From assembly GCF_988242995.1 (NCBI RefSeq), contig NZ_OZ547043.1: DNA of 64,000 bases; one strand, 5' to 3'. Positions 37,368 to 37,506 of the stretch are shown piece after piece (the stretch's first letter is position 1; each line of letters starts with the position of its first letter). The notes under the pieces were generated by a model. That model saw nothing but the letters and a program-made list of their open reading frames with translations, searched no databases and was not told the DNA's origin. The position numbers and the translations under genes are program-made.

Positions 37368-37506
37368 CACTTGTCCCACCTGTCCCAACCTGTGAGAAAC
37401 ACACATAACATACTGAATTATATTGGGCAATATCAGAAAAAGTGGGACAAGTACGGGACAAGTTAAGGTGATTTTGGGACAAGTTAGGAGCATTTTGGGA
37501 CAAGTC
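37368..37506. repeat. Iteron cluster 1: 2x cttgtccca then 4x gggacaagt in opposite orientation
   Basis: Seen directly in sequence immediately past the primase stop. Confidence 0.75.

Follow-up and report, generated by a model that had tools for sequence, protein, structure and literature searches.

The window, a stretch of 64,000 nucleotides from contig NZ_OZ547043.1 of assembly GCF_988242995.1, contains a small integrated island whose left boundary is the end of a tRNA-Pro(GGG) gene at 31901-31977. Most E. coli genomes align to the window only as far as 31979, the empty site (L003) reads ...ctctcgtgccgaccaaaaatccc, and comparison with it places the junction repeat ctctcgtggaccaaaaatccc at about 40910-40930. 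The island region is near-identical to E. coli LH13-b, and the chromosomal flanks are only 98-99% identical, which marks the window as DNA of another strain. Repeats of TTAGTTATAYGTTTRGTTAYACG lie near both island ends, at 32100-32121 and 40827-40848, and are probably integrase arm-type sites. On the + strand, the left part of the island carries a P4-family integrase, an AlpA-like HTH protein, a region with a C4-type antisense RNA and an icd-like ORF, a DUF4222 protein, and the initiator Rep. These are followed on the same strand by a first cluster of short repeats (iterons), genes for SSB, ProQ/FinO-like and PerC-like proteins, orf69, ~540 bp of non-coding DNA, and a second iteron cluster, to the right of which lie a PmgG-like ORF and then attR. 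The features needed below are as follows, with the first and second clusters described as modules 1 and 2.

31978-40925, + strand: ~8.95-kb PICI-like island, inserted between yejM and yejO at the tRNA-Pro(GGG) 3' end
35209-37344, + strand: Rep, a 711-aa DUF927 initiator-helicase, with Walker A at residues ~352-356 and a modelled C-terminal winged helix at about 635-705
37369-37386, - strand: abutting iteron pair of module 1 (GGGACAAGT, GGGACAGGT), starts 37369 and 37378, 9-bp period
37387-37443, no strand: AT-rich spacer of module 1, candidate melting region, 57 bp, 32% GC
37444-37505, + strand: four GGGACAAGT iterons of module 1, starts 37444, 37455, 37476 and 37497, spacing 11/21/21 bp
37581-38006, + strand: SSB gene, between the modules
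38042-38578, + strand: ProQ/FinO-like gene, between the modules, with an in-frame TAG at 38210
38575-38859, + strand: PerC-like gene, between the modules
38916-39125, + strand: orf69, between the modules
39662-39712, - strand: three GGGACAAGT iterons of module 2, starts 39662, 39683 and 39704, spacing 21/21 bp
39713-39759, no strand: AT-rich spacer of module 2 with an IHF-consensus match, 47 bp, 26% GC
39760-39786, + strand: three abutting iterons of module 2 (GGGACAGGT, GGGACAGGT, GGGACGGGT), starts 39760, 39769 and 39778, 9-bp period
39787-39813, no strand: conserved GTTTTG(TA)nCGAAAAATTG tract (G-TTTTG-(TA)n-CGAAAAATTG) 3' of module 2, from sequence comparison

The island looks like a phage-inducible chromosomal island (PICI), being small, inserted at a specific att site, equipped with int, alpA and rep, oriented rightward, and free of phage structural and lysis modules. 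It has none of the capsid, protease, portal, head-tail connector, HNH, TerS or TerL genes of the capsid-forming PICIs (cf-PICIs). That capsid-forming gene set is found in the close relatives L006, L012 and L013, and relatives on the same backbone include both PICIs and cf-PICIs. The window island may be decaying: packaging genes are absent, ash is a pseudogene, and a nonsense codon interrupts the ProQ/FinO-like gene. The codon, TAG at 38210-38212, is TGG (Trp) in E. coli LH13-b and 042, and in the window it splits the gene into ORFs of 56 and 119 aa, the FinO domain falling in the 119-aa ORF.

Several other elements of the island deserve mention. Directly 5' of the icd-like ORF (34529-34717), Rfam matches were obtained to C4 antisense RNA at 34388-34475 (76 bits, above the gathering score) and to isrK at 34287-34363 (47 bits, just under the gathering score), an arrangement resembling the RNA immunity cassette of the P1/P7/P4 type. 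The PmgG-like ORF, orf198 (40088-40684), matches PHROG 1114 'PmgG-like head morphogenesis' at 9e-60, has no counterpart in the island of E. coli 042, which is identical in other respects, and has DNA homologues (70-85% identity) on plasmids of 36-94 kb; it may have been inserted late and be directed at a P1-like helper. A non-coding element of ~135 bp (ACGAAAAATTGCATTCAGGAGGGGG...GCCTCGTCAAATTTTTACACCCGCGAAAT), at 39803-39940 in the window, is conserved at the right end of many PICIs, among them L010 (about 23060-23200) and L011 (18003-18140). Several hundred E. coli genomes have matches to parts of it, and it might conceivably be a packaging site or a promoter.

Exact matches to GGGACARGT number 11 in the 64-kb window and all fall at 37369-37505 or 39662-39777, while shuffles of the window give a mean of 0.43 and a maximum of 2. 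A degenerate twelfth iteron, GGGACGGGT, follows at 39778-39786. The two clusters picked out by an earlier, sequence-only reading of this DNA are thus real. That reading also called their architecture identical, which is correct for strand polarity, since each runs from minus to plus, but the abutting array and the 21-bp array have changed places, so that cluster 2 is the inverted image of cluster 1. A repeat finder likewise paired the clusters as long inverted repeats (I1, I2, I6). The 21-bp phasing corresponds to about two helical turns. Between the rep stop at 37344 and the first iteron of cluster 1 at 37369 lie 24 bp; the distance between the clusters is 2156 bp, and module 2 sits 2.3 kb past the rep stop. 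No RNA family was found by Rfam at either cluster, promoter and terminator scans over 37300-40150 returned only what shuffled sequence returns, and the composition profile of the island, a short element, held no informative skew switch. Placement of cluster 2 within a lambda-type cos site was considered and dropped, cosN-like sequences numbering 50 in the window versus 61 expected.

The gene directly upstream of cluster 1 had been read as a primase/helicase. Pfam and NCBIfam searches with the 711-aa protein returned a DUF927 initiator-helicase domain only; a primase domain was not detected. Rep weakly matches the SCCmec Cch1 helicase model, and its sequence matches the solved SaPI protein 8tch (E 8e-15) and Cch 5dgk. 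BLASTP against the alpha protein of phage P4 gave a best E of 1.2, that is, no detectable similarity. The C-terminus modelled with AlphaFold from a 36-sequence alignment, at medium confidence (mean pLDDT 67, ~85 over the domain; 41 for a single-sequence run), is a winged helix closest to the C-terminal domain of SaPIbov1 Rep. Foldseek with this model gave nothing significant, and a PDB sequence search with the C-terminus alone gave no match. Rep is therefore, as in PICIs and SaPIs, a Rep-type helicase with a predicted C-terminal winged helix.

In Gram-negative PICIs, the origin is the region directly 3' of the initiator gene, and a pri-rep-ori segment of EcCICFT073 drives plasmid replication (Fillol-Salom et al. 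2018, PMC6092414). The SaPI origin, according to PMC9371898 (citing Ubeda 2007, 2012), lies directly after rep and has an AT-rich centre with at least 2 iterons to either side, pointing in opposite directions; the iterons are read by the C-terminal winged helix of Rep. Modules 1 and 2 of the window each have opposite-orientation iterons around AT-rich DNA, as in a PICI or SaPI origin, and only module 1 lies directly 3' of the initiator gene. The window island shares with the EcCICFT073 type of PICI this placement of opposed iterons 3' of rep, as well as the rightward series of P4-family integrase, AlpA, DUF4222, rep, SSB and PerC. It differs in that the initiator of EcCICFT073 is of the 'DNA primase family' with the iteron GGTAGAYA, as opposed to a DUF927-type Rep with GGGACARGT, and in that described origins are contiguous, while the second module in the window is 2.2 kb away with genes in between. 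With SaPIs it shares a Rep homologous to 8tch and Cch, a modelled winged helix, and an origin downstream of rep; SaPI iterons, however, are 5-6 nt in a single described module, whereas those of the window are 9-10 nt in two modules, with differently spaced arms within each module and a split arrangement. Judged by these features, cluster 1 is a predicted origin of a known kind, that of an ordinary PICI. The EcCICFT073 origin is a composite of ~220 bp with abutting pairs at both outer edges, and because the segment tested was rep-adjacent and its origin composite, that test is silent on a distal module. In the literature that we searched, neither a split arrangement nor a distal iteron cluster in PICIs is described.

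Relatives were collected by two IMG/VR DNA-pattern scans; a contig profile search with the Rep alignment added 1 locus (E. albertii), the peptide patterns being too specific. The layout of cluster 1, with 2 abutting iterons, a spacer, and 4 iterons at 11/21/21, recurs with the iteron TAACCCGCA in L005, L006, L010, L012 and L013. The same architecture is found with GGGACAACA in the L083 group, with GGGAYAAGT in L076, L084 and L085, with GAGACAAC in Morganella (L120) and Providencia (L121), and, up to the end of the contig, with GGTACAAC in Yersinia (L119). An AT-rich spacer is present at the module 1 position in all relatives.

In ~20 IMG/VR loci with a DUF927 rep, and in L120 and L121, the two modules are adjacent, giving the strand pattern --++++--+++. 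This composite form is a mirror-symmetric block of ~270 bp directly after rep, in the order abutting (-), AT-rich spacer, phased (+), phased (-), AT-rich spacer, abutting (+), GTTTTG(TA)nCGAAAAAT, and next ORF. Composite loci comprise 12-13 with TAACCCGCA, 5 with GGGACAACA, 3 with GGGAYAAGT, and the Morganella and Providencia loci with GAGACAAC; in three rep-fragment loci from other genera, which are degraded islands, the composite architecture is still visible. The split form, with module 1 after rep and a distal module of three minus-strand and three plus-strand iterons 2.2-10.5 kb downstream, was found at 13 loci (the window, L007, L015, L010, L012, L013, L033, L036, L039, L045, L048, L074 and L097). 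Where loci with module 1 alone next to rep have at least 8.6 kb of downstream sequence, the distal module is present in all but L094; there, with 10.5 kb available, it is probably just out of range, since the Rep is of the E1/L005 type, for which module 2 lies at 10.6 kb. No composite locus has a distal cluster, all rep-oriented loci having been classified. Since the modules are contiguous in relatives and separate here, and since composite and distal forms are complementary, the two clusters of the window would be the two halves of one origin. Nearly all relatives examined, composite or split, have the GTTTTG(TA)n tract after module 2, in diverged versions at a few loci (e.g., L076, L080 and L085); it is a possible unwinding element or promoter.

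Split origins occur in quite different islands. E1 (L010) is a 19-kb island at tRNA-Gly with an integrase and cargo unlike those of the window, in which a TAACCCGCA module 1 follows rep directly and its TAACCCGCA mirror image lies 10.5 kb further on, close to the right end. The distal module is 7.9 kb downstream in the cf-PICIs L012 and L013 and is also present in RM9088 (L009). Window-type islands with both GGGACAAGT modules were found in E. coli 042 and E. albertii. Of 5426 complete E. coli genomes, at least 114 have a split TAACCCGCA module, at least 135 have a composite, and 53 have the window-type island. The iteron types seen in the split state are two, and the related sequences are mostly close. 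Searches within the islands of L011, which is RepA-type, and EcCICFT073 found no distal cluster, so a distal site is not a general PICI requirement.

The position of the clusters, flanking the SSB, FinO and PerC genes, had led the sequence-only reading to offer two other explanations: that they are operators for PerC or an island regulator, or that they are direct repeats delimiting a cassette. Together with a cos or pac signal, which could be imagined because cluster 2 adjoins the conserved non-coding element near the right end of the island, we regard this family of explanations as very improbable. Operators for the PerC-like, AlpA-like or ProQ/FinO-like proteins are disfavoured by L012, which has both clusters and no PerC or FinO gene, and by the fact that the iteron type follows the C-terminus of Rep (see below). 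A packaging signal fits poorly with L011, where the conserved right-end element is present without distal iterons, and with EcCICFT073, whose cosN-like sequence lies elsewhere in its island. As for delimiting or inverting a cassette, the repeats are inverted rather than direct, the intervening DNA is of unrelated content and anything from 0 to 10.5 kb long, and its orientation does not vary among the annotated islands examined (the window, L007, L010, L012 and L013).

The match between iterons and Rep bears on what binds the clusters. Residues 145-600 of Rep are 94-100% identical across iteron types; the window and L012 proteins, for example, share ~97% identity over this region and diverge at 35-145 and 600-711. 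Across about 50 loci, the iteron type goes with the last ~110 residues; among 33 full-length Reps, it tracks them perfectly, and the N-terminal variant assorts independently of it. Thus, the Rep of L013 is 99% identical to that of the window at the N-terminus and 35% at the C-terminus, and its iteron is TAACCCGCA, as it is for L006, also 99% identical at the N-terminus. Conversely, L007 Rep is 61% identical at the N-terminus and 100% at the C-terminus and is paired with GGGACAAGT; for E. coli 042, the N-terminal identity is 61% and the iteron GGGACAAGT. Related C-termini (the WQIRTPRLKH group) pair with related iterons (GGGAYARNN). The iteron is thus specific to the Rep allele, and its type follows the C-terminus and nothing else that we examined. 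This pattern points to the last ~110 residues as a putative exchangeable specificity module.

The first ~120 residues of Rep match PHROG 2850 and occur in several variants (residues 1-145, window 35209-35640). These variants are independent of the helicase core, and a similar segment heads the alpha-like Rep of L004 (L004 4679-5100), which suggests that the N-terminal segment is a separate exchangeable domain.

Because module 1 is contiguous with the region encoding the Rep C-terminus, a single recombination event could exchange both. Module 2 is kilobases away and nevertheless always carries the iteron of the proximal module, in both iteron types seen split. Between the window and E1, the left flanks of the distal module are ~80% identical and the right flanks ~90%, and the iteron cassette between them has been replaced. 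That a distant site has changed in step speaks for selection on an interaction between Rep and module 2. A comparison of 31 distinct distal modules shows iterons that hardly change and spacers that do.

These observations bear on whether cluster 2 could be a non-functional relic, left by the origin of a second related island lost through deletion or produced as a by-product of rearrangement. A deletion remnant of the same island in FCI56 (L002 7928-9135) shows that the sequence can outlast its function: there a 75-nt integrase fragment runs directly into the counterpart of window 38799-39931, and module 2 survives in the absence of rep and module 1. In the window, the last of the three abutting copies is degenerate, and the island shows the signs of decay noted above. 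Against this, the islands that carry the distal module differ in integrase, att site and cargo and are found in E. albertii as well as in at least 114 plus 53 E. coli genomes; the distal module occurs in just those loci that have no module 2 next to module 1. Its iteron always matches the resident Rep, even where flanks are shared and the cassette differs, and the iterons are held nearly constant amid variable spacers. With this distribution, we find it hard to credit that cluster 2 is a relic.

The two modules are not equivalent. The consensus for IHF is WATCAANNNNTTR, and the spacer of module 2 in the window contains a match, AATCAATTTGTTA, at 39738-39750. Matches to WATCAANNNNTTR are found in 20 of 26 distinct module-2 spacers, from three iteron types, in the rep-oriented count, and in 0 of 29 distinct module-1 spacers. 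The IHF site and the (TA)n tract are therefore features of module 2 only. This suggests that opening may take place mainly at module 2, with module 1 as a partner acting in cis; one of the two could also serve control instead of initiation. An IHF-like 15-mer of the module-2 spacer, AAAATCAATTTGTTA, has a second copy at 40878-40892, beside attR.

P4 is a satellite with 2 separated sites. Its alpha protein reportedly binds both ori and crr, with crr said to be required in cis, and the 2 sites would act as an opening site and a cis partner through looping. In the P4 GenBank record, crr (4291-4590) is directly 3' of alpha (stop 4636), about 46 bp after the stop, and ori is 4.7 kb from crr, with type-1 repeats at 9310-9413. 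Both ori and crr, the latter made of two 120-bp repeats, contain TGTTCACC type-1 repeats. The window resembles P4 in having two iteron-bearing cis sites kilobases apart, one of them directly 3' of rep, with the same repeat at both sites and with abutting pairs and inverted copies around AT-rich DNA. It differs in that Rep is not of the alpha family, which combines primase, helicase and a C-terminal origin-binding domain, in that its iteron is GGGACARGT and not the type I iteron TGTTCACC, and in that the 120-bp repeats of crr are direct and are not a mirror image of ori. With no similarity of Rep to alpha and no primase domain detected, the likeness is one of layout and not of family. The proposal of a bipartite origin analogous to P4 ori and crr, bound by the adjacent Rep, accordingly holds up in position, in the shared iteron, in the link to the Rep C-terminus and in the P4-like layout, so far as sequence can speak to it, and fails on the alpha family. 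The cf-PICI L004, whose locus sequence ends before the right end of the island, has a Rep 49% identical to alpha (helicase and C-terminal region), TGTTCACC iterons and a composite origin. Since P4 is split and the alpha-like L004 composite, the composite/split dichotomy occurs in two unrelated initiator families.

Separated groups of iterons are also familiar from plasmids. In R6K (gamma, alpha and beta), contact through the initiator between separated iteron groups activates distant origins, while in P1 (incC and incA) and F (incB and incC), looping or handcuffing by the initiator limits copy number. The initiator families of these plasmids are unrelated to the Rep of the window, and their iteron sets flank rep or form plain direct arrays, in contrast to the mirror-image, origin-like modules that flank cargo genes here.

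The plasmid examples supply the main competing explanation, namely that Rep binds the distal cluster for control, by titration or handcuffing or by repression of a promoter, and that cluster 1 alone is the origin. The models would be incA of P1 and incC of F, iteron arrays outside a minimal origin being a classic copy-control device in iteron plasmids. The non-equivalence of the modules is in keeping with this, and the (TA)n tract, ~25 bp upstream of the next ORF in composites, is a possible -10-like element. Each module alone also fits the SaPI-type origin definition as given in PMC9371898. Module 2 is, however, built like an origin, with an AT-rich spacer, inverted arrays and an IHF consensus, and is not a plain direct array; in composites, the two modules lie edge to edge as strict mirror images, as though they were a single unit. 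Every locus sequenced far enough has kept module 2, and the promoter scan at module 2 did no better than shuffles. We therefore consider a purely regulatory role of cluster 2 unlikely, although less so than the relic or the operator, packaging and cassette explanations.

The explanation that we prefer, with a probability of roughly 70%, is that the two clusters are two Rep-bound modules of the split origin of a satellite island, laid out like crr and ori of P4. We infer from the sequence comparisons that binding and melting by Rep, looping, and a need for module 2 would enter as follows. After induction and excision, the DUF927 initiator-helicase would recognise TGGGACARGT through its C-terminal winged helix and assemble on both modules, melt AT-rich DNA and load itself. 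Module 2, with its IHF-type bend site and (TA)n tract, would be a possible site of main opening, and module 1 a possible cis-acting partner reached through Rep-Rep looping. More tentatively, and with rather more doubt than confidence, PICI-type satellites with a self-loading DUF927 helicase may run a naturally split origin whose modules cooperate or fire separately across 2-10 kb, with P4 ori/crr following the same principle in an unrelated Rep family.

If the origin is split in this manner, a simple rule for reading these islands would follow: the origin consists of two mirror-image modules, and if one follows rep, the other should be near the right end of the island. Such a rule would help in delimiting PICIs and cf-PICIs and in designing working mini-replicons, and it would connect PICI origins with ori and crr of P4, an arrangement that was never fully explained in its logic. 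The natural pairs of composite and split origins with near-identical initiators offer a test of how a self-loading helicase uses separated sites; with Rep cores 94-100% identical, rules of distance and orientation for helicase loading would become directly testable if the split-origin reading is true. A split origin encloses all accessory, packaging and possible defence genes between its modules, and any bearing of this on the exchange or amplification of cargo is speculation.

Two islands of the split type have features of their own. The cf-PICI L013 is inserted inside the terL gene of an HK97-like prophage, with terL fragments at 2278-3306 and 18273-19016 flanking the island. In E1, the cargo between the modules consists of three large consecutive ORFs of 843, 686 and 918 aa (L010 14536-21883), which are annotated as hypothetical and could be a defence system.
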